A model generated the notes under the pieces. It was not told the origin of the DNA. It worked only from the letters and a program-made list of their open reading frames with translations, and made no database searches. Below, piece by piece: positions 17,635 through 59,371 of a DNA stretch of 64,000 bases. The position numbers were made by a program, and so were the translations under genes. The DNA is from a virus: IMG/VR virus record IMGVR_UViG_3300023184_000034, positions 97,030 through 161,029 of that record. One strand, 5' to 3'. How positions within the stretch are numbered: position 1 is the first letter of the stretch; each line of letters begins with the position of its first letter.

Positions 17635-18258
17635 CTATGCTTTGATAATGCGAGAAACCTTGGATATACTACCGCCAAGGTGCATTTTTGACATGAGTAA
17701 GTTGTTATCACCTGTTACATAGAAGTGTGTACCGCCCCAACTGCGATTCCTTGTCAAGGCTGCTATACAACTCTTTGTTAGTTTGAGTTTTTTATTACAT
17801 GATGCCCATGATATAAATGCACTGTGTTCCTGTGTAGTTTTACCCAGCGTCACTCGGAAATCGTAGTTCATCTTGGGCATAATCACAGTATCAGAACTCA
17901 GTGACACATTGGCCGGCGGCGCACAAACATACTTGACCCTGTTGCTGTCCAACTTTGCTAAATCATCTATATGACTTTTATTATTTGTGTACACAGTAAT
18001 CCATGGGTTTTCTATCCTGATATTTAAATCAACCGATATAGACAACACTTTATACAGAGACAACGCATAGTCCTTGTCTTCAAAACTTTTAAAACTTAGA
18101 GATCCAGGCCGAGAACTTGGAGAAATGCTACTTTTTTGCAACATGTTCAAACAGTGTTGCCAATCACCGTTGCGAAAGAAGTGTGCATTGGAACACACCA
18201 ACACTATCTTGTATTGGTATATCCCCATGAACAACTTGCTAGTGGTTTTAACTAACAT
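17635..18258 (-). CDS. Hypothetical protein
   Basis: 207-aa ORF overlapping the clpA stop. Confidence 0.7.
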   Translation of the reverse strand: MLVKTTSKLFMGIYQYKIVLVCSNAHFFRNGDWQHCLNMLQKSSISPSSRPGSLSFKSFEDKDYALSLYKVLSISVDLNIRIENPWITVYTNNKSHIDDLAKLDSNRVKYVCAPPANVSLSSDTVIMPKMNYDFRVTLGKTTQEHSAFISWASCNKKLKLTKSCIAALTRNRSWGGTHFYVTGDNNLLMSKMHLGGSISKVSRIIKA

Positions 18259-20527
18259 TCATCTCAACCAACGAAGTAGTGGAATCCACTGTTAGCAACG
18301 GCGTTTTTGATTCCTTGGGAGTTGACAACAACACCAACTTGTCGTCTTGAACTGTGATGTTTAGTACTCCGCCGTTCTTTAAATTACCAAACAACATGAG
18401 CTTTGCCATCGGACGTTTGATTTCCTTGTCAATCACACGTTGTAACGGACGTGCGCCCATCTTGGGATCAAAACCTTTGGTAATAAGCCAGTTAGTACTT
18501 TCCTTATCTAACTTGATACGAATGCCTTTTTCTTTAACTTGAGCACGTAACTCATCCATAAATTTAACAATAACCTTGGTCATAGACTCTTTGCCCAACT
18601 TGTTAAAAGTCATAATACCATCCAATCGATTACGGAACTCTGGTGTAAAGAATTTCTTCAAATCTGCATCACTGTAATCTTTTTCCTGTGCGCCAAAACC
18701 AATGGCATTCTTTTCCGCAGATTGTGCGCCAGCATTGGTAGTGAGGATAAGAATCAAATTACGGCAATCTGCTTGTTTGCCATTTGACCCTGTGACAAAA
18801 CCGTTATCCATCATTTGCAACAACACAGTTGTGACATCTGGATGCGATTTTTCAACTTCATCAAACAACAACACTGCATTTGGATTCTCTTGAATCTGTG
18901 TGATTAGCAATCCAGCGTTCTCCTCAAACCCCACATAGCCAGGAGGACTACCGATCAGTTTGGAAATGCTGTGCTTTTCTTGGTATTCTGACATGTCAAA
19001 TCTCAACAACTTGACACTCAAGTGCTTGGCCAGTGATTTGGCAGTTTCGGTCTTGCCGCAACCCGTGGGCCCCATGAACACAAATGATCCAATGGGTTTA
19101 TTTTCTGATTTTAATCCAGCCTGCGCCACCATGATCTTATCCACAACTTCTGTAAGAGCAAGATCTTGCCCGTAAACTTCACGTTGCAAGTTTTCTTGTA
19201 GCATGGAAAGATTGCTGGATTCTGTTTCCATGATCTTTTCTTCAGGCATTTGAATCATCTTGGCCAGTTCAAACTGAATTTCACGCTCGCCAATGATTCG
19301 ATCATCTGCAAGTTTGAGATTAAAACGACTACATGCCAAATCGATCAAGTCAATTGCTTTGTCTGGCAACTTCTTGTCTGTTTGATATTTGACTGACAAT
19401 TTAATAGCAGCATCCAGTGCATCATCACGTATTTTAACCTTGTGGAAACCTTCGTAGTATTTCTTAATACCTTTGAGGATTTGTTTGGTAACTTCCACGG
19501 TGGGCTCGTCAACTGTGATGCGTTGAAACCTGCGCATCAGCGCACGATCCTTTTCAAAGTGCTTGCGATATTCTTCCCATGTGGTTGATGCAATGACTTT
19601 GATGTTGCCTTTGCTCAGTGCAGGTTTCATCATGTTGGCAAGGTCGTTTGAACTGTTGCCACCTGCGCCAGCACCACTAATCATGTGAGCTTCGTCGATA
19701 AACAACACAGTTTTGCCTTTCTTCTGCAATGCCTTAATAACATGCTTGAATCTTTCTTCAAAGTCTCCACGATACTTGCTGCCAGCCAGCATAGCACTGA
19801 TATCTAAACTGTAAACTTTGTATTCTTTGAGAAATTCTGGAACAGCACCATTCACAATATTGTGTGCAAGGCCTTCAGCAATAGCAGTCTTGCCCACGCC
19901 AGGATCACCAACTAAAATCACATTATTTTTATTGCGACGACCCAATGCCAGTGCAATATTTTCTAATTCGTCAATACGACCAATAACTGGATCAATCTTT
20001 TGTTTTTCAACCATGTCGTTTAGATTGGTTGTAAACGCACGAAGTGCTCTGTCGCTTTGATTGTCTGTGCCAGATTCTTCTTCAGATTCTTCAGAATTGC
20101 TGTTATTAACAAAGTCATTGAACTTGTCTTTATCGATTTTGGCCTTTTGGATGTAATAATGTGCCCAGCTGCGTTTTTCACCAATCATGCTCATGAACAC
20201 ATCAGTGGGTTCAATACGTTGCCTACCGTTAAACAACACTTGTGTAAATGCACGATTAAGCACACGCTCTACACTTTGAGTTTTCTTTGGTTTAACAACC
20301 ACATCAGTGATGGTGATTTCTTGACACTTGTTGTGCAAATAATCTGTTAGATCATTTTTAAGTTCGTCAAGATTTGCGCCAAATCCTGTGATCACGTTTC
20401 CAAATGGTTCCTCCAACAACATGGCATACAATAAATGTTCTATTGTAAGATACTCGTGATGAAGTTTTTTAGCTGTATCAATTGCTTTTTCAAATACCGC
20501 TTGTAGGTTATCACTTGGTTCAACCAT
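18248..20527 (-). CDS. clpA: ATP-dependent Clp protease ATPase subunit ClpA
   Basis: Clp-N domain (HEYLTIEHLL), two AAA+ modules (GDPGVGKT, GPTGCGKT), IGF ClpP-docking loop, GARPL; no ClpB coiled-coil middle domain. Confidence 0.93.
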   Translation of the reverse strand: MVEPSDNLQAVFEKAIDTAKKLHHEYLTIEHLLYAMLLEEPFGNVITGFGANLDELKNDLTDYLHNKCQEITITDVVVKPKKTQSVERVLNRAFTQVLFNGRQRIEPTDVFMSMIGEKRSWAHYYIQKAKIDKDKFNDFVNNSNSEESEEESGTDNQSDRALRAFTTNLNDMVEKQKIDPVIGRIDELENIALALGRRNKNNVILVGDPGVGKTAIAEGLAHNIVNGAVPEFLKEYKVYSLDISAMLAGSKYRGDFEERFKHVIKALQKKGKTVLFIDEAHMISGAGAGGNSSNDLANMMKPALSKGNIKVIASTTWEEYRKHFEKDRALMRRFQRITVDEPTVEVTKQILKGIKKYYEGFHKVKIRDDALDAAIKLSVKYQTDKKLPDKAIDLIDLACSRFNLKLADDRIIGEREIQFELAKMIQMPEEKIMETESSNLSMLQENLQREVYGQDLALTEVVDKIMVAQAGLKSENKPIGSFVFMGPTGCGKTETAKSLAKHLSVKLLRFDMSEYQEKHSISKLIGSPPGYVGFEENAGLLITQIQENPNAVLLFDEVEKSHPDVTTVLLQMMDNGFVTGSNGKQADCRNLILILTTNAGAQSAEKNAIGFGAQEKDYSDADLKKFFTPEFRNRLDGIMTFNKLGKESMTKVIVKFMDELRAQVKEKGIRIKLDKESTNWLITKGFDPKMGARPLQRVIDKEIKRPMAKLMLFGNLKNGGVLNITVQDDKLVLLSTPKESKTPLLTVDSTTSLVEMNVS

Positions 20528-38041: not shown

Positions 38042-38042
<1 letters not shown>
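35601..38042 (-). CDS. Tail fibre with YadA-head-like repeats
   Basis: NDKTGDTLRNAFVKANANF; about 9 A(V/I)A(I/V)G..AG...QG repeats; W.F..DG.L.LP repeats. Confidence 0.75.
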
Positions 38043-52174
<14,132 letters not shown>

Positions 52175-52558: not shown

Positions 52559-52849
52559 ATGATGTTCATTGGTACAGAATTTCGTCAAACACAATATGTT
52601 CGCAGCAGCAATCGCGGCAAGCACCACACCTATGTTAGAAACAAAACTGTGGTGGTTTTAAAGTGTGATGCGTGTAATACTATTTTTACAAGAGACAAGG
52701 GCAACATGGACCCAAACAGATTATCAAACAATTTCTATCATGTTTGTGAGCACTGTGATGCCAAGAAGTTTGCTCAATTAAAAGGCGTTGAAAGCAGGAA
52801 TGTGTGGAGTATGCCTGCCAGTAGCCTCAAGACACTAGACCAACTCTAG
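52559..52849 (+). CDS. Small Zn-ribbon protein
   Basis: CDAC...CEHC; TAAATA at 52552-52557. Confidence 0.65.
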   Translation: MMFIGTEFRQTQYVRSSNRGKHHTYVRNKTVVVLKCDACNTIFTRDKGNMDPNRLSNNFYHVCEHCDAKKFAQLKGVESRNVWSMPASSLKTLDQL

Positions 52850-53387
52850 CACTGATAACGTTCCAGTTCATGATTTTCCATTGATTGGCAAGATAGCTTT
52901 TTTTATCAGCTTGGTAGTCAAGAGCCCAGGCGTGTTCCCAAAAATCCACTAGCAACACAATATCCATCCTGATTTCGTGATTTTTAATAGTTTTGACGGA
53001 ACCATCTCGTGCCAAGTATGCCCATCCCGATCCTTGTATCTTCATGGCTGTTTTTTCAAATTCTTCTTTGAATTTGTCAAATGTTTTGAAATGTTTGGTA
53101 ATAAACTCACCAGCTGATCCACTGGGTTCATTTGATGCAGTGGGTTTTTGAAACTGAGTAAAGTACAAGTCGTGTAAAAATGCTCCTGCTTCATTGAAGT
53201 CAGCATCGCCTTCTCCGTCGTTGAACCTAGTCACATACGCCTTGTATAACTTGCCATAGTGATATTTGATGGTGTCTTCACTTTTACTGGGCTCCAATTC
53301 GTCCTTGGCGTACGGCAGCTTTGTCTGCACCAATGTCTTGGGTGTTTTACCCTCGTTCATGGTGATATGTCGTATAAAATTGTACAT
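52827..53387 (-). CDS. Fe/Mn superoxide dismutase
   Basis: LPYAKDELEP, YHYGK, LHDLYF, GSGW, DFWEHA; all four metal ligands present; start ATG 53387. Confidence 0.9.
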   Translation of the reverse strand: MYNFIRHITMNEGKTPKTLVQTKLPYAKDELEPSKSEDTIKYHYGKLYKAYVTRFNDGEGDADFNEAGAFLHDLYFTQFQKPTASNEPSGSAGEFITKHFKTFDKFKEEFEKTAMKIQGSGWAYLARDGSVKTIKNHEIRMDIVLLVDFWEHAWALDYQADKKSYLANQWKIMNWNVISARVGLVS

Positions 53388-53429
53388 AACCATATTTAGC
53401 GATATAAATACTCTGGAGGATAATATACC

Positions 53430-53720
53430 ATGTTAAACGCAATTAAAAAATTATTTGGAATCAACCCATCAGATGCTGCTGTACAAGTAGAGCCAGCGGC
53501 TCCTTACAAGATCGATCCATTACCTGCTGGTACTGAAGCAGCCATTATAACTACTCCTAATACTGAAGCAGTGGTAGTTGTAGCAGATGCTGTTGTACCA
53601 GCTGAGGTTGTTAAGGCAACGCCTGCTAAACGCGGTCCAGCTAAGCCAAAAGCAGTTAAACCAGCTGTTGTAAAAGCACCAGCGGCTCCTAAAAAGCCAC
53701 GTGCTCCTAAAGCAGTTTAA
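53430..53720 (+). CDS. Small protein with Lys/Ala/Pro-rich histone-like tail
   Basis: TATAAATA at 53403-53410; GGAGG SD; PAKRGPAKPKAVK. Confidence 0.65.
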   Translation: MLNAIKKLFGINPSDAAVQVEPAAPYKIDPLPAGTEAAIITTPNTEAVVVVADAVVPAEVVKATPAKRGPAKPKAVKPAVVKAPAAPKKPRAPKAV

Positions 53721-54729
53721 GTTCTACAGCCCGGTTGTACACTTGGGCACTGGATAAATTCTTGCCCTTGCTTTCGCACATGATGTCAAAGTGTTCCCAG
53801 AAGCTGAGAGCCCAGTCAGTCACAGGTTGATTCCAATACCAGTCACTGTGTGCCCGCATCTTTTGTTTTTTGTAGCCTGCAGCCAGCAGTGCCGCATGGT
53901 CTGGTAACACATCAACGGGATGATCAATCAGCACATCTTCTCTACTCACACTGTAATGGCACACTGGCCTTACACCGCGCCACGAATCAATAATACGTTT
54001 GACTCTATCGTCTGTGGGGTGAATATATTCCCCAGTGCGAATCCAGTGATGGTGAATATCCAACACTAGCGCACAATGATCCACTAGCTCAATGCTGCTA
54101 TCCACACCCCAACAATTTTCATCATTCTCGATGGTAATACAATTACGAGCTTCTGGACTCAGTTTGGTTAGCGTTTCTTTGATTCCTTCTGGACCACGCT
54201 TGCCTGAGATATGCACATTGATCTTCATGTCTTGGAATGTTTTGCCAAATCCCATCCAACGGGCCATGTCAGCATGATATTCAAATTCTTCAATGCTACG
54301 TTCCACAATGCCGGGATTTTCACTGGCCAACACACAGAACTGTCCAGGATGAAAACTGATACGCACATCATGTTTGCGAGCAGCTTCGCCCACTGGGGCA
54401 AATATCCGTTCGCAATGCCGTTGTTGGTCTGGCTGTTGCCACCATGTAATCCAATCTTTTTCTGTGTATCCACTCAGCATTTCTGATCCAATACGCATCA
54501 TTCTGCGTTCAGCAGGCAACTGTGCCACACGTTCAATCATCTTCACAGCGGCGCTGGTGTTGTGATTCATCAGGTCATATTGACGCTGTTCAGCTTCCAG
54601 CGGATGTTCACGAAGCCACCGCATGGTGGTACTGCGACCATTCAGCACCCTGTTGTCGGCATTTACTTTCATACCTCGTACTTCGGAGGCATCATCTAGC
54701 CATTTACAAGCGTAACCAATTCGTTTCAT
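53707..54729 (-). CDS. uvsE: UV damage endonuclease UvsE/UVDE
   Basis: RIGYAC, RISFHPGQF, NVHI, IENDE, LDIHHH, RAHSD, MCESK. Confidence 0.92.
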   Translation of the reverse strand: MKRIGYACKWLDDASEVRGMKVNADNRVLNGRSTTMRWLREHPLEAEQRQYDLMNHNTSAAVKMIERVAQLPAERRMMRIGSEMLSGYTEKDWITWWQQPDQQRHCERIFAPVGEAARKHDVRISFHPGQFCVLASENPGIVERSIEEFEYHADMARWMGFGKTFQDMKINVHISGKRGPEGIKETLTKLSPEARNCITIENDENCWGVDSSIELVDHCALVLDIHHHWIRTGEYIHPTDDRVKRIIDSWRGVRPVCHYSVSREDVLIDHPVDVLPDHAALLAAGYKKQKMRAHSDWYWNQPVTDWALSFWEHFDIMCESKGKNLSSAQVYNRAVELKLL

Positions 54730-54743
54730 AATACACAATCAAT

Positions 54744-54789
54744 AAAAATAGACATGTTATATTATAACACCATGTCCATCCACAGTCAA
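54744..54789 (-). promoter_or_regulatory. sigma70 promoter TTGACT-17-TATAAT with -10 inside a hairpin followed by a T-tract
   Basis: GACATG..TTATA-A-TATAA-CATGTC-TATTTTT; -10 at 54761-54766, -35 at 54784-54789. Confidence 0.7.
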
Positions 54790-54797
54790 CTTGTTGT

Positions 54798-54989
54798 TCA
54801 CCAATGTCTAATCACGTTTGCAATAATAAAACAACAGGTAACACTGTGAAGTAACACCCAAAAAGTTTTAAGGAATAATGCAATCCTTGCTTCTCTCAAA
54901 GTAAGAATTGGCACGTCTGGTCGATCACTGTCCGAGCTTCCCATCAAATGACCAGTTGCTCTGGCCCAAACTCGTTCTAAACTATTCAA
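54798..54989 (-). CDS. Small membrane protein
   Basis: 63 aa with C-terminal hydrophobic helix; overlaps the queD stop. Confidence 0.6.
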   Translation of the reverse strand: MNSLERVWARATGHLMGSSDSDRPDVPILTLREARIALFLKTFWVLLHSVTCCFIIANVIRHW

Positions 54990-55492
54990 CTTAGCAAATC
55001 CTCATTCCACTCTCTGTGTCCTTCACGGAATGCCATATTGGCCTGTGTCTCACGTACTTCTACCTTGTAACACCAAAGACGAGCTGCTTCTCCTGGTCCC
55101 CACATTTCTGGAATGTAAACACCATTCACATACTTGTACAGCATGTCGCTGAGTCCTTCACAACCCAAACGTGGCAGTATTACTACCTTGGCCATTTTCT
55201 TTTCTTGTAGCAGTTTATATGTGGCCATTTCTGGATCATCTTCTGCCACAATAAGTGTGTGGTCAAATTGATCTTCCAGTGTCTTTTTGAGTTCTTTTAG
55301 GCCACCATAATCAGCAGCCCAATTACGAACATCTAAGTCGTTTGTTCCAAAATAGAACTTCATGCTGAAGCTGTAGCCATGAATTAGATTACAGTGGCTA
55401 TCACTACGCCATTGTCTGTAAGCACATGGAAATGCGTCCACGTATTCTTTTGTGCTTTGATACTTGTATACTACTGGTTGTAAATTTGCCAT
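54986..55492 (-). CDS. queD: 6-pyruvoyl-tetrahydropterin synthase / QueD-family protein
   Basis: CAYRQW..SHCNLIHGY, DYGGLKELK, FDH, EVRET; AGGAG SD. Confidence 0.8.
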   Translation of the reverse strand: MANLQPVVYKYQSTKEYVDAFPCAYRQWRSDSHCNLIHGYSFSMKFYFGTNDLDVRNWAADYGGLKELKKTLEDQFDHTLIVAEDDPEMATYKLLQEKKMAKVVILPRLGCEGLSDMLYKYVNGVYIPEMWGPGEAARLWCYKVEVRETQANMAFREGHREWNEDLLS

Positions 55493-55516
55493 TGTTATCT
55501 CCTAAGATTAAGCAAT

Positions 55517-55560
55517 GGCATGCAGAGTTTATATTGCGGGATGAATGCCTAAGTCCGCAT
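55517..55560 (-). ncRNA. Candidate preQ1-I-like riboswitch pseudoknot in the queD 5' UTR
   Basis: P1 UGCGG/CCGCA, loop ending CAUC, A-rich tail AUAUAAACU, P2 GGCAU/AUGCC; begins at the predicted +1. Confidence 0.5.
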
Positions 55561-55566
55561 AAGTTA

Positions 55567-55595
55567 ATTGTATAGATTTATTTAGACAAAGTCAA
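55567..55595 (-). promoter_or_regulatory. sigma70 promoter TTGACT-17-TACAAT (late box TAAATA in the spacer)
   Basis: TTGACT ttgtctaaataaatcta TACAAT. Confidence 0.8.
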
Positions 55596-55597
55596 TG

Positions 55598-57094
55598 TTA
55601 TTGGCTACCAATCCGACCAAACCCTGCCCATTGTCCGGGTGTGCCTTCTGTCACGCACACCCATCCGATATAACTGTCTGTGCCAGGATTTGTATTCCAG
55701 CAAATGTCACCCTTGTTGAAATAATGATGAGCCTCAGTGGGCGCACTGTGTCCTGAAGTAAATCGTTTACCTCCAATGCTGACATCACCGTTCACACTGA
55801 ATTGTAAACTTGGATCTGGATTATTGATGTTCACACTCAACGGACCAAAAACTTTTACAGGTTTTGATTGCGCCAGTTTTGTTCCTATTGTGATCTGCGT
55901 TGAATCTCCAAATAAGATTGGAACTTCACCAACTCCAACAGTCATCTCTGTTGAGTTGTATAATCCGTTTGGCATCAAACGAGTAGTACCAACTTGAACG
56001 CCAGCCGTAAAAGATCCACGCTCCGCATCAAGCGAATTGGTTATGGTATTACCTGAAACTGTTACATTATCTAATACACCCACTGATGTTAAACTACTAT
56101 GTGTTACAGATGCACCTAGTGTGTTTTCACTCAGCGCAAGAGCATTATTGATATAATAAGATTTACCAGAGCCTAAGTCTAAGTTTTCACTGGACCACAA
56201 TCGAGTTGGCCCGCTCATCATTACAAGTTGTGCAGAAAATGTTGGGTCTGTCCAAGCCAACCCCAAACCAAACGCACTCGTGTCTCTAGTACCTGAGAAC
56301 TGTAGCGGATGTGTTCTATCAATTCTGTTGTCTGTCACAACACTTCCGGCATTGATGACACCATACACATTCAACACGCCGCCGCCGTGTACCGGATCTC
56401 CAACGTTGACTTCCCCACTGTTTTTAATAGTGACACGGGGAATGTTGTCTGTGGTAATGGTTAAGTCATGGCAACTGACAGTTCCAAAACTACCAACGCC
56501 AATGCTAGGACTACCAATGCCAAGTTCAACGTTATTTTCAATAATGGTAATAGCTGAGCTGGGATCTTCTGTACCTATTCCTAACTTATTGAAATTGGTG
56601 TTAAAAAATGCAAATTCACCAATGCTTACATCACCGGAAACATTTAGTTTTGACAGTGTACCCACGCTGGTTAAACGACTGCTGGTGATGCCGCCGCCCA
56701 ATGCTGTTGCACTGATTACTGGAATATTATCAATGCTATAAGTGGAATTTGCAGAAATATCCAGATTGGCATTTGTCCATAGACGGTTTCCTAACCGGTA
56801 CGCCAGTTGTGTTTGTCCAACACCGTGAGTCCAGCTGAAACCCTTTCCGTTTAATTCGCTTTCGGTGTTGTAAATCCAATCACCAACACTGGCTAGATTG
56901 CCGTTATCTGTAACTAAATTCTTAACATTGATAGTTTCAGCTTCAATAGTTCCAGCAACTGATAAGTTCTGGTTTATGCGAACATTGCCTGCAACGTTGA
57001 TTGCGCCGGCATGTTGTACATCTCCGCGGGTGTTTAACAGCGTTAAATCTGCTATTGCAACGGTTGTATCTTGGATATCAAATAGTTTAGACAT
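55598..57094 (-). CDS. Tail fibre-like structural protein
   Basis: SSLTSVG.L..L.V repeats; C-terminus KGDICWN..GWVC...GTPGQW; likely start ATG 57094. Confidence 0.65.
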   Translation of the reverse strand: MSKLFDIQDTTVAIADLTLLNTRGDVQHAGAINVAGNVRINQNLSVAGTIEAETINVKNLVTDNGNLASVGDWIYNTESELNGKGFSWTHGVGQTQLAYRLGNRLWTNANLDISANSTYSIDNIPVISATALGGGITSSRLTSVGTLSKLNVSGDVSIGEFAFFNTNFNKLGIGTEDPSSAITIIENNVELGIGSPSIGVGSFGTVSCHDLTITTDNIPRVTIKNSGEVNVGDPVHGGGVLNVYGVINAGSVVTDNRIDRTHPLQFSGTRDTSAFGLGLAWTDPTFSAQLVMMSGPTRLWSSENLDLGSGKSYYINNALALSENTLGASVTHSSLTSVGVLDNVTVSGNTITNSLDAERGSFTAGVQVGTTRLMPNGLYNSTEMTVGVGEVPILFGDSTQITIGTKLAQSKPVKVFGPLSVNINNPDPSLQFSVNGDVSIGGKRFTSGHSAPTEAHHYFNKGDICWNTNPGTDSYIGWVCVTEGTPGQWAGFGRIGSQ

Positions 57095-57129
57095 GGATAA
57101 AGTACTCTCTTTGGAGTATTTATCCATGT
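57091..57129 (-). promoter_or_regulatory. Late promoter inside a start-codon-sequestering hairpin
   Basis: ACATGGATAAATACTC-caaaga-GAGTACTTTATCCATGT; TAAATA in the 5' arm, ATG in the 3' arm. Confidence 0.7.
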
Positions 57130-58453: not shown

Positions 58454-59371
58454 ATGAAGAAAGTTCTCATAACAGGATTGACAGGATTCATTGGCGGTTA
58501 TCTCCAAAATCGTTTAGAAAACCAATATCAAATTTTTGATTTGGCATGTGACTTGTTGGACAAGGAAGCAATTGACAAGCGATTAACTGAAGTTGATCCA
58601 GAGTTCATCATCCATTTGGCTGCACGAACTGAAGTGGAAAAGAGCTTTTATGAGCAAACAACTTTTAGCCAAATCAATTATGTTGGTACTGTGAACATGA
58701 TTGAATCAGCTAGGCATTTGAAAAATCTCAAACTGTTTGTGTTTAGCAGCACAATGGAAACGTATGGTTGGCAACCTGAAAGCAATTTGATTCGTGACGG
58801 TAAACCGTTTACTTTGCCAGTGTTTGATGAGTCAACTAAACAATATCCCAATGCACCCTATGCTGTAGCCAAAGTTGGGTGCGAACTTTATTTAGAATAT
58901 GCTCACCGCTCGTTTGATTTTCCATTCTGTGCGTTTAGACAAACCAACACATATGGTAGACATGACAACGACTTCTTTGTGGTGGAACAAATTATTTCAC
59001 AAATGTTAAAGAACCCCAATGAAATCAATCTAGGCTACGGCAAACCATACCGAAACTTCTTGTGGATTGATGACCTAATTGAATTGTACGCAACTGTACT
59101 AACAAAACCAGAACAAGCCAACGGAGAAATTTTCTGTGTTGGTCCCGACAATGCACTTACTATTGAAAGTTTAGTTGAAAAAATAGCTGACAAGATGAAC
59201 TGGAATGGCACAGTTAACTGGAATACCAAACCCAACCGCGACGGTGAAATTTACGTATTAAATTCCACAGCCGCAAAAGCAGAACGATTGTTGGGTTGGA
59301 AGCCAACTGTGGATTTAGACACTGGACTAGATCGTGTTATTCAGCTTTGGAAAGATAAAATAACACGATGA
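58454..59371 (+). CDS. NAD-dependent nucleotide-sugar dehydratase/epimerase
   Basis: TGLTGFIG, HLAA, SSTMETYG, YAVAK; TAAATA at 58426-58431. Confidence 0.9.
   Translation: MKKVLITGLTGFIGGYLQNRLENQYQIFDLACDLLDKEAIDKRLTEVDPEFIIHLAARTEVEKSFYEQTTFSQINYVGTVNMIESARHLKNLKLFVFSSTMETYGWQPESNLIRDGKPFTLPVFDESTKQYPNAPYAVAKVGCELYLEYAHRSFDFPFCAFRQTNTYGRHDNDFFVVEQIISQMLKNPNEINLGYGKPYRNFLWIDDLIELYATVLTKPEQANGEIFCVGPDNALTIESLVEKIADKMNWNGTVNWNTKPNRDGEIYVLNSTAAKAERLLGWKPTVDLDTGLDRVIQLWKDKITR

Follow-up and report, generated by a model that had tools for sequence, protein, structure and literature searches.

The 64,000-nucleotide (nt) stretch of viral DNA analyzed here (the window; positions 97,030 to 161,029 of IMG/VR record IMGVR_UViG_3300023184_000034) contains a queD-like gene whose messenger RNA leader, as comparative sequence analysis confirms, forms a real, conserved H-type pseudoknot. 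The 3' strand of the second pseudoknot helix is at the same time complementary to the region of the start codon or, in relatives, of the Shine-Dalgarno sequence (SD), and compensating base changes maintain both of these mutually exclusive pairings. We lean toward the view that the leader is a cis-acting, ligand-binding, translational ON riboswitch of the queD-like (CPH4 synthase-type) gene, whose ligand would present a guanine-like face.

A conserved H-type pseudoknot in the queD leader

The leader runs on the minus strand, and all of its parts lie in a 105-nt gap between two genes. It consists of two helices, P1 and P2, three loops, L1 to L3, and the translation start signals:

55555..55559, minus strand: P1 5' strand, UGCGG; pairs with 55535-55539
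55550..55554, minus strand: L1, ACUUA (consensus N-C-U-U...)
55545..55549, minus strand: P2 5' strand, GGCAU, inside the P1 loop; pairs with 55517-55521
55540..55544, minus strand: L2, UCAUC; its last C abuts the 5' side of the P1 3' strand
55535..55539, minus strand: P1 3' strand, CCGCA
55522..55534, minus strand: L3, AUAUAAACUCUGC; consensus WUANAAAYUCUGC, 13 nt
55517..55521, minus strand: P2 3' strand, AUGCC
55499..55503, minus strand: SD, AGGAG
55492-55490, minus strand: start codon AUG

The loop closed by P1 is 15 nt long (ACUUAGGCAUUCAUC), and the SD lies at least 13 nt downstream of the P2 3' strand. A sequence-only reading of the window had described a P1 of 5 base pairs (bp), a loop ending in CAUC, an A-rich tail, a P2 of GGCAU/AUGCC, an SD and an AUG, and all of these are present on the minus strand.

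Related loci were gathered in two ways. A protein-based scan of IMG/VR confirmed at least 594 relatives of the queD-like gene; the best 80 loci were kept, and the element was present in all of the approximately 77 among them that had enough upstream DNA. A second scan, made independently of the protein with a pattern for the L2-L3 core, returned at least 119 further sites. The great majority (106 of 119) lie directly before a queD-like open reading frame (ORF), four are chance matches in coding sequence, and some others precede a cupin gene, a methyltransferase gene or a canonical CxxxHGH PTPS gene, themselves ahead of a queD-like gene. Second pattern matches in four loci (L057, L058, L070 and L081) fell in coding sequence and were set aside as spurious. 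As a first MAFFT alignment (A1) had P2 out of register, instances were aligned with a covariance model, which was built from ten gap-free instances and had P2 as its sole structure. The resulting alignments comprise 54 distinct protein-selected and 84 distinct pattern-selected rows.

In the protein-selected set, 96.4% of the cells pair, compared to 85.1 +/- 0.7% in shuffled alignments, none of which (0/500) reached the observed value; in the pattern-selected set, the fraction is 97.1%. Both-sided changes are seen in 8/10 pairs in either set, and the covariation scores are 0.258 (versus 0.078 shuffled) and 0.334 (versus 0.101 shuffled), respectively. When the 3' partners were moved by 1-3 columns, only 38-53% of the cells remained paired in the protein-selected set (score 0.02-0.06), and the score of the pattern-selected set was at most 0.068. 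Conservation of the leader and covariation of P1 and P2 among phage queD leaders, which the sequence-only reading had put forward as one test of its proposal, are therefore found in two differently gathered sets.

P1 pairs in 99.6-99.8% of its cells across the two sets, and these counts are unbiased, since P1 lay outside the covariance model. Six compensated types (UGCGG/CCGCA, AGCGG/CCGCU, AGUGG/CCACU, AGAGG/CCUCU, ACCGG/CCGGU and AUCGG/CCGAU) and one additional wobble (G-U) variant were observed. P2, which varies between 4 and 7 bp, pairs in 93-94% of its cells, with all five pairs changed on both sides in the two sets; its types include GGCAU/AUGCC, GGCAU/AUGUC, GACGC/GUGUC, GACGU/AUGUC, GGCG/CGCC, GGCU/AGCC, GACA/UGUC and ACGUCAU/AUGUCGU. 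The G-U pairs in P2 (for example in GGCAU/AUGUC) indicate that the sense RNA folds, rather than the DNA or the antisense strand. P2 may be extended by a CA/UG pairing, both sides of which are invariant and hence give no covariation signal. Pairing of the L3 CUGC with the P1 5' strand was considered and rejected, because CUGC is invariant whereas P1 varies.

Nearly invariant unpaired bases

Conservation of the loops was counted over 155 distinct instances. The C and U of the L1 motif N-C-U-(U) are found in 155/155, and neither position formed part of any search pattern. In L2, (U)UCAUC, the last C is likewise present in 155/155 and the U before it in 147/155. L3 is 13 nt long in all instances except one (154/155), and seven of its bases (A, A, A, U, C, G, C) are invariant both in the protein-selected set and in the 155 instances; the L2 and L3 invariants are the same in the protein-selected and the pattern-selected set. 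Altogether, approximately 16 unpaired bases are nearly invariant. Constraint of this kind on the loops, maintained while promoters, spacers, flanks and encoded proteins diverge, is typical of riboswitch aptamers. The leader thus combines a conserved structure and covariation with conserved unpaired bases, as generally expected of an aptamer.

A competing helix predicted to mask the start site

The P2 3' strand is part of a second potential helix, which reaches across the SD to the start codon:

55513..55520, minus strand: alternative helix 5' strand, UGCCAUUG; overlaps the P2 3' strand
55487..55494, minus strand: alternative helix 3' strand, CAAUGGCA; holds the start codon

The two strands, UGCCAUUG (55520-55513) and CAAUGGCA (55494-55487), are perfect complements, and the minimum-energy fold constrained to form P1 without the knot uses the helix between them. 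In the clade of the window the SD is located in the loop of this helix; in another clade it is itself enclosed in a hairpin, CCUAUG/CAUAGG. Complementarity of the P2 3' strand to the start-codon or SD region is retained in 153/155 distinct instances, and the complements change together. At the start codon we find AUUG/CAAU, AUC/GAU, GUCUU/AAGAU and AUUGUU/AACAAU, as well as UGUCAUC/GAUGACA where codon 2 is ACA; the clade with a masked SD shows CCUAUG/CAUAGG, CCUAUA/UAUAGG and CUCUAUU/AAUAGAG. When tails and start regions were shuffled among 39 distinct non-hairpin combinations, the alternative helix, with an observed mean length of 7.05, shortened to a mean of 6.2, and none of 2000 permutations exceeded 6.6. 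Compensating changes in the knot as well as in the masking helix argue that both of these mutually exclusive helices are under selection. The leader therefore possesses, next to the candidate aptamer, an expression-platform helix that is exclusive with it.

In the window, the alternative fold (approximately -9.0 kcal/mol) is stronger than the bare P2 duplex (-6.9 kcal/mol), so that the masked state should be the default and a stabilized knot should open the start site. The median energies are -5.1 kcal/mol for the alternative fold and -5.5 kcal/mol for P2. With L3 and the P2 3' strand blocked, the mean computed accessibility of the SD rises from 0.38 to 0.68, and that of the AUG in the window's clade from 0.00 to 0.35-0.67. 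Since the anti-start-codon or anti-SD strand coincides with the P2 3' strand, knot formation should switch translation on. This wiring is the reverse of feedback repression; the sequence-only reading had envisaged feedback control by a metabolite.

Relation to preQ1-I and other known RNAs

The same reading had assigned the leader to the preQ class of riboswitches as a variant. The structural and contextual part of this assignment holds, i.e. an H-type pseudoknot with a 5-bp P1, a CAUC, an A-rich L3 and pathway genes downstream, while membership in the class does not, as none of the preQ1 models (RF00522, RF01054, RF02680) matches the element. At gathering score, no Rfam family was found at the site in a search of the whole window, and searches at E<=10 with short stretches (501 nt, and 81 nt of the most Bsu-like instance) gave just chance snoRNA and miRNA rows. 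The preQ1-I model RF00522 (gathering score 39 bits) matched the site neither in the window nor, at E<=10, in the 81- or 501-nt searches; with the whole record at E<=10, the site was not among the matches listed, the weakest of which scored 8.5 bits. For preQ1-II (RF01054), no match was obtained in the record at E<=10, and the single preQ1-III (RF02680) match in the record (10.6 bits) lies elsewhere. A search with the Rfam PreQ1 model, suggested by the sequence-only reading, thus failed to recover the element at any of these scales.

Conversely, the covariance model of the phage motif gave at most 5.3 bits on genuine preQ1-I sites. These were taken from a class-wide sample of Clostridia; no preQ1-I was found in five Bacillota genomes that had been reached via pattern loci. 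The best genuine preQ1-I RNA (53 bits) reads AGAGG-UUCGAAGACCAUC-CCUCU-AUAAAAAACUAGG, and the remaining ones read GUGAG-UUCGAAACCAUC-CUCAC-...AAAACAAAACUAAGGAG. One phage instance (L024) has AGAGG...CAUC-CCUCUAUAAAAA in common with the 53-bit preQ1-I RNA. In preQ1-I riboswitches, a UC before the P1 3' strand is the signature of type I, with the C acting as the specificity base, while in types II and III an A precedes the C (PMC11625349).

The phage motif resembles preQ1-I in being a small H-type pseudoknot with a 5-bp P1 and G-C pairs next to the pocket, in carrying a C, predicted to take part in binding, that follows a U directly 5' of the P1 3' strand (...CAUC|CC...), in its A-rich L3 after P1 (WUANAAA, with three invariant A) and in its position ahead of 7-deazaguanine pathway genes. 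It differs in L1, which reads N-C-U-U and varies in its first base, instead of UU(C) (UUCG or UCGC in the genuine examples), in a P2 that is longer (4-7 bp) and placed further into the loop, and in an L3 of constant length (13 nt) that carries six additional invariant bases (YUCUGC). Deviations of the 5' loop and of an extended P2 from the preQ1-I consensus had already been noticed in the sequence-only reading. Furthermore, the SD of the phage motif is outside P2, whose 3' strand is an anti-start-codon or anti-SD strand with ON logic, and the motif is found in uncultured phage contigs only. Given the lack of an RF00522 match, the lack of cross-scoring and these differences in L1, P2, L3 and SD placement, we file the motif as a preQ1-I-like variant, not as a member of the class.

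Other systems offer partial parallels. The adenine (add) riboswitch is an ON-type translational switch, in which the ligand-bound aptamer withdraws a strand that masks the SD or start codon; the phage knot is proposed to free the start site in the same manner, but the add aptamer is a three-way junction and the phage motif a minimal pseudoknot. The T4 gene 32 leader contains a pseudoknot that nucleates binding of the gene's own single-stranded-DNA-binding product, without a competing start-codon helix. The phage motif resembles it as an H-type pseudoknot placed at the 5' end of an mRNA leader in a T4-like phage, with a predicted role in translational control, yet here knot and masking helix are in direct competition. 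The regulated gene encodes, as judged from its sequence, a PTPS-fold enzyme and not a leader-binding product as in an autoregulatory operator of the gene 32 type. Glutamine riboswitches have been described in pelagiphages and cyanophages; they belong to a class that bacteria also possess and are found by standard scanners (PMC9004378). The queD-leader motif is likewise a riboswitch-type RNA of T4-like aquatic phages, but it belongs to no catalogued family, and literature searches turned up no description of it.

A proposed ligand-dependent ON switch and its alternatives

In the mechanism we favor, the longer alternative helix would prevail in the absence of a stabilizer, and the start codon or SD would be hidden; occupancy of the knot by a small ligand would lock P2, expose the start site and activate QueD synthesis. 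Two features, the A-rich L3 and the invariant C ahead of the P1 3' strand, are reminiscent of the preQ1-I pocket, and by this analogy the ligand would most likely be a guanine-like heterocycle. It could be a pathway compound with a guanine-like face, either a precursor acting as a feed-forward signal, for which dihydroneopterin triphosphate, GTP and guanine are candidates, or an intermediate such as 7-carboxy-7-deazaguanine (CDG), preQ0 or 7-deazaguanine.

Several observations weigh against this reading. Taken by itself, the sequence of the window folds no better than shuffles (minimum free energy -9.8 kcal/mol, z 0.55), so the case for more than chance rests on the comparison of related loci. 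Part of the L2/L3 conservation in the pattern-selected set is forced by the search pattern, and, for P2, the model had fitted the alignments to the very helix that they were used to assess; a minority of instances have only three P2 pairs (GGC/GCC) plus a mismatch. The computed gain in accessibility is partly inherent in the constraint applied, under which L3 and the P2 3' strand are unavailable. In the CCUAUGCU clade, 38 instances can pair UAUGCU/AGCAUG over the start codon with the knot formed, which makes the ON/OFF logic less clean in that clade. The promoter and transcript start are predictions only, and the identity of the ligand is a proposal. ON switches seldom control biosynthetic genes, and every described preQ1 riboswitch hides the SD or terminates transcription (PMC11625349).

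Alternatively, the leader might be a translational operator worked by a phage or host protein, such as a QueD-like hexamer or a T4-type regulator, which would bind the knot and shift the balance between knot and masking helix without any small ligand. In T4-like phages, pseudoknots and hairpins of mRNAs do serve as operators for proteins (gene 32, gene 43, regA), and the phages studied here have T4-late-like promoters. The conserved single-stranded bases would suit a protein site as well, and the motif occurs once per genome, only before the queD-like operon, as an autoregulatory site would. We nevertheless consider such an operator unlikely: the downstream PTPS-fold gene has no known RNA-binding role, the fixed-length A-rich L3 and the C before P1 copy the layout of the preQ1-I ligand pocket (PMC11625349), and the motif is found as well ahead of operons with a different first gene, which speaks against a simple autoregulatory loop of the first product. 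We give somewhat less weight again to a ligand-free structural switch, in which competition between knot and hairpin would set translation through folding kinetics, temperature, ribosome standby or transcript processing. While compensating changes back both of the mutually exclusive helices, and their median energies (-5.1 versus -5.5 kcal/mol) are close enough for small changes in conditions to tip the balance, simple helix competition would require far less than an L3 fixed at 13 nt and approximately 16 unpaired bases that hardly vary.

That the element is a true, divergent preQ1-I riboswitch, binding preQ1 or preQ0 and repressing queD by feedback, appears very improbable. A 5-bp P1 with top G-C pairs, a UC before the P1 3' strand as in type I (PMC11625349), an A-rich L3, the AGAGG...CAUC-CCUCUAUAAAAA that one phage instance and the 53-bit preQ1-I RNA have in common, and the queuosine/7-deazaguanine gene context would all fit. 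Against this stand the missing RF00522 match at the site even at E 10 and the poor scores (<=5.3 bits) of the phage model on genuine sites, an L1 of NCUU instead of UU(C), six extra invariant L3 bases, an SD outside the P2 3' strand, the ON wiring, and the absence of QueC and QueF, and hence of a route to preQ0 or preQ1, from what was found in five partial genomes. A more specific form of the favored ligand-binding ON switch, which we entertain with a little less assurance than the switch itself, is a new, phage-only riboswitch class, derived from or convergent with preQ1-I, that would sense the phage's own 7-deazaguanine precursor or intermediate (e.g. dihydroneopterin triphosphate, CDG or preQ0) and turn on translation of the CPH4 synthase.

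Phage riboswitches are rare, and those known belong to classes borrowed from bacteria (PMC9004378). The queD-leader motif is abundant, seen in phage contigs only and absent from Rfam. If it binds a metabolite, phages would sense their own nucleotide-modification metabolism by means of RNA, an activating relative would be added to a family known for repression only, and a natural ON switch of 43 nt, responsive to a guanine-like compound, would be at hand, whose ligand would tell which intermediate limits 7-deazaguanine synthesis during infection. A phage-only ON class, if real, would give the preQ1 family its first relative of the ON type and would be the first case of a metabolite-sensing RNA in control of DNA hypermodification by a phage.

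The queD-like gene, its predicted promoter and pathway context

The genes on either side of the leader and the promoter predicted for it are:

54986-55492, minus strand: queD-like (PTPS-fold) gene, 168 amino acids (aa), with a C-x3-H-G-Y motif
55598-57127: 509-aa virion or fibre-like gene, bounding the 105-nt gap that holds the leader
55567..55595, minus strand: predicted sigma-70-like promoter; TTGACT 55595-55590, 17-nt spacer, TACAAT 55572-55567; 10/12 matches

The promoter-like TTGACT-17-TACAAT named in the sequence-only reading is thus present at 55595..55567, and its position predicts a transcript start near 55560. In related loci, P1 is closely preceded by either a TATAAT-like -10 element or a (T)ATAAATA that resembles T4 late promoters. 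Another near-consensus sigma-70-like promoter (TTGACT-17-TATAAT with a TG extension, 11/12 matches) is found at 54761-54789 on the minus strand, between a 63-aa ORF that follows queD and a UvdE-like endonuclease gene (53707-54738).

The 168-aa product matches Pfam PTPS (1.9e-14) and falls into the phage family phrog_2389, "QueD-like" (1.5e-34), while its score against the NCBIfam QueD model, 33 bits, is far under the 89-bit cut-off. Its closest solved relative is a CPH4 synthase (PDB 7v0f, E 1e-4), and it is 38-52% identical to proteins of cultured phages, e.g. Iggy and ACP17, that are annotated as QueD, PTPS or CPH4 synthase (approximately 44% for the QueD-annotated protein of phage Iggy). 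All queD-like proteins inspected behind the leader (ten loci) carry C-x3-H-G-Y in place of the canonical QueD motif C-x3-H-G-H, by which the third zinc ligand is replaced. At one locus (L147:6750-7172; the contig is also L059), a canonical PTPS (CAHLHGHNY, Pfam 95 bits) is encoded between the leader and the queD-like gene. As both proteins stand behind the same leader and differ in the third ligand, their activities may differ.

FolE and a QueE-like radical SAM enzyme (phrog_2076, 7e-51) are encoded approximately 55-70 kb upstream in the same record, in a region that also encodes a phosphoribosyltransferase (PRTase), a cupin and dehydrogenases. Just before the window lies a 565-aa ORF (L205:15800-17497, minus strand, corresponding to genome positions 94799-96496) with no Pfam or PHROG match and more than 7,700 unannotated homologues; PDB sequence searches with this ORF and with a 363-aa ORF gave nothing useful. 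Among named ESM Atlas clusters, those nearest to the 565-aa ORF are TGT-like (0.92) and DpdA (0.88), DpdA being the DNA preQ0 insertase. In comparisons with a low-confidence structural model (pLDDT 53), archaeosine TGT, QTRT2, DpdA and bacterial TGT ranked top (Z 11.5-12.4), compared to Z values of approximately 9 for generic TIM barrels. The model lends moderate support to the ORF probably being a very divergent DpdA-type transglycosylase with a TGT/DpdA fold. Sequence searches of five partial genomes revealed no convincing match to QueC (PF06508, Iggy QueC), QueF (PF14489), DpdA (PF23859, Iggy DpdA) or TGT (PF01702); with neither QueC nor QueF found, no route to preQ0 or preQ1 is visible in them. 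Of the genes that the sequence-only reading suggested looking for elsewhere in the genome (folE, queC, queE and dpdA), folE was therefore located, together with genes for a QueE-like enzyme and for a protein with a probable TGT/DpdA fold, and QueC and a DpdA detectable by sequence were not.

FolE2 or PRTase genes follow in some of the related loci. As the leader heads operons with queD-like, PTPS, FolE2 and PRTase genes, the regulated function belongs to 7-deazaguanine/pterin metabolism. In four loci (L135, L190, L199 and L094), the queD-like gene is followed by genes for a KDO8P/DAHP-synthase-family enzyme, DOPA 4,5-dioxygenase-family proteins and methyltransferases, and the same operons encode a recurring "ILLPTRGR" protein of approximately 270 aa and an epimerase/dehydratase-like protein. 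These varied operons hint at sugar or other tailoring chemistry tied to the pathway.

Distribution and further observations

The 161-kb record, which CheckV estimates to be approximately 44% complete, contains one copy of the motif by the covariance model (76.6 bits) and no second copy, e.g. before folE or queE. The runner-up, at 59306-59343 on the plus strand (12.8 bits, E 0.86), comprises a P1 5' part and a P2-like hairpin without L2 and L3 and is most likely a chance match. A blastn search with the locus gave no match in cultured phages, and the queD loci of ACP17, X1, R5C and Iggy have neither the leader nor the motif. The pattern scan of one genome per prokaryote species returned at least 120 matches, about the chance expectation, with no real instance among 80 checked; these 80 bacterial and archaeal matches have the pattern core only, and three of them (L212, L222 and L233) were seen to be without P1 or P2. 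Records with the motif reach 354 kb, and many have (T)ATAAATA just upstream of P1; the phages that bear it look like large T4-like phages.

At one locus (L073:760-1400), a partial second element lies approximately 640 nt upstream of the full copy. It comprises the promoter, P1, L1, the P2 5' strand and L2, followed by an unrelated L3, and drives a 183-aa ORF that starts with MIYLYIKQHTITGLKYFGK and has a weak NUMOD3 match (21 bits). This ORF looks like a Seg-type homing endonuclease that has been inserted into the leader, duplicating its 5' half. A similar-looking ORF without a Pfam match lies 84 nt after a full motif at another locus (L185:4829-5800).

Elsewhere in the window, a single ORF of 4,710 aa occupies 38042-52174 on the minus strand. 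Genes for an Fe/Mn superoxide dismutase (52827-53393), a UvdE-type UV endonuclease (53707-54738) and a 759-aa Lon-like ATP-dependent protease (phrog_4871; 18248-20527) are located on the same strand.

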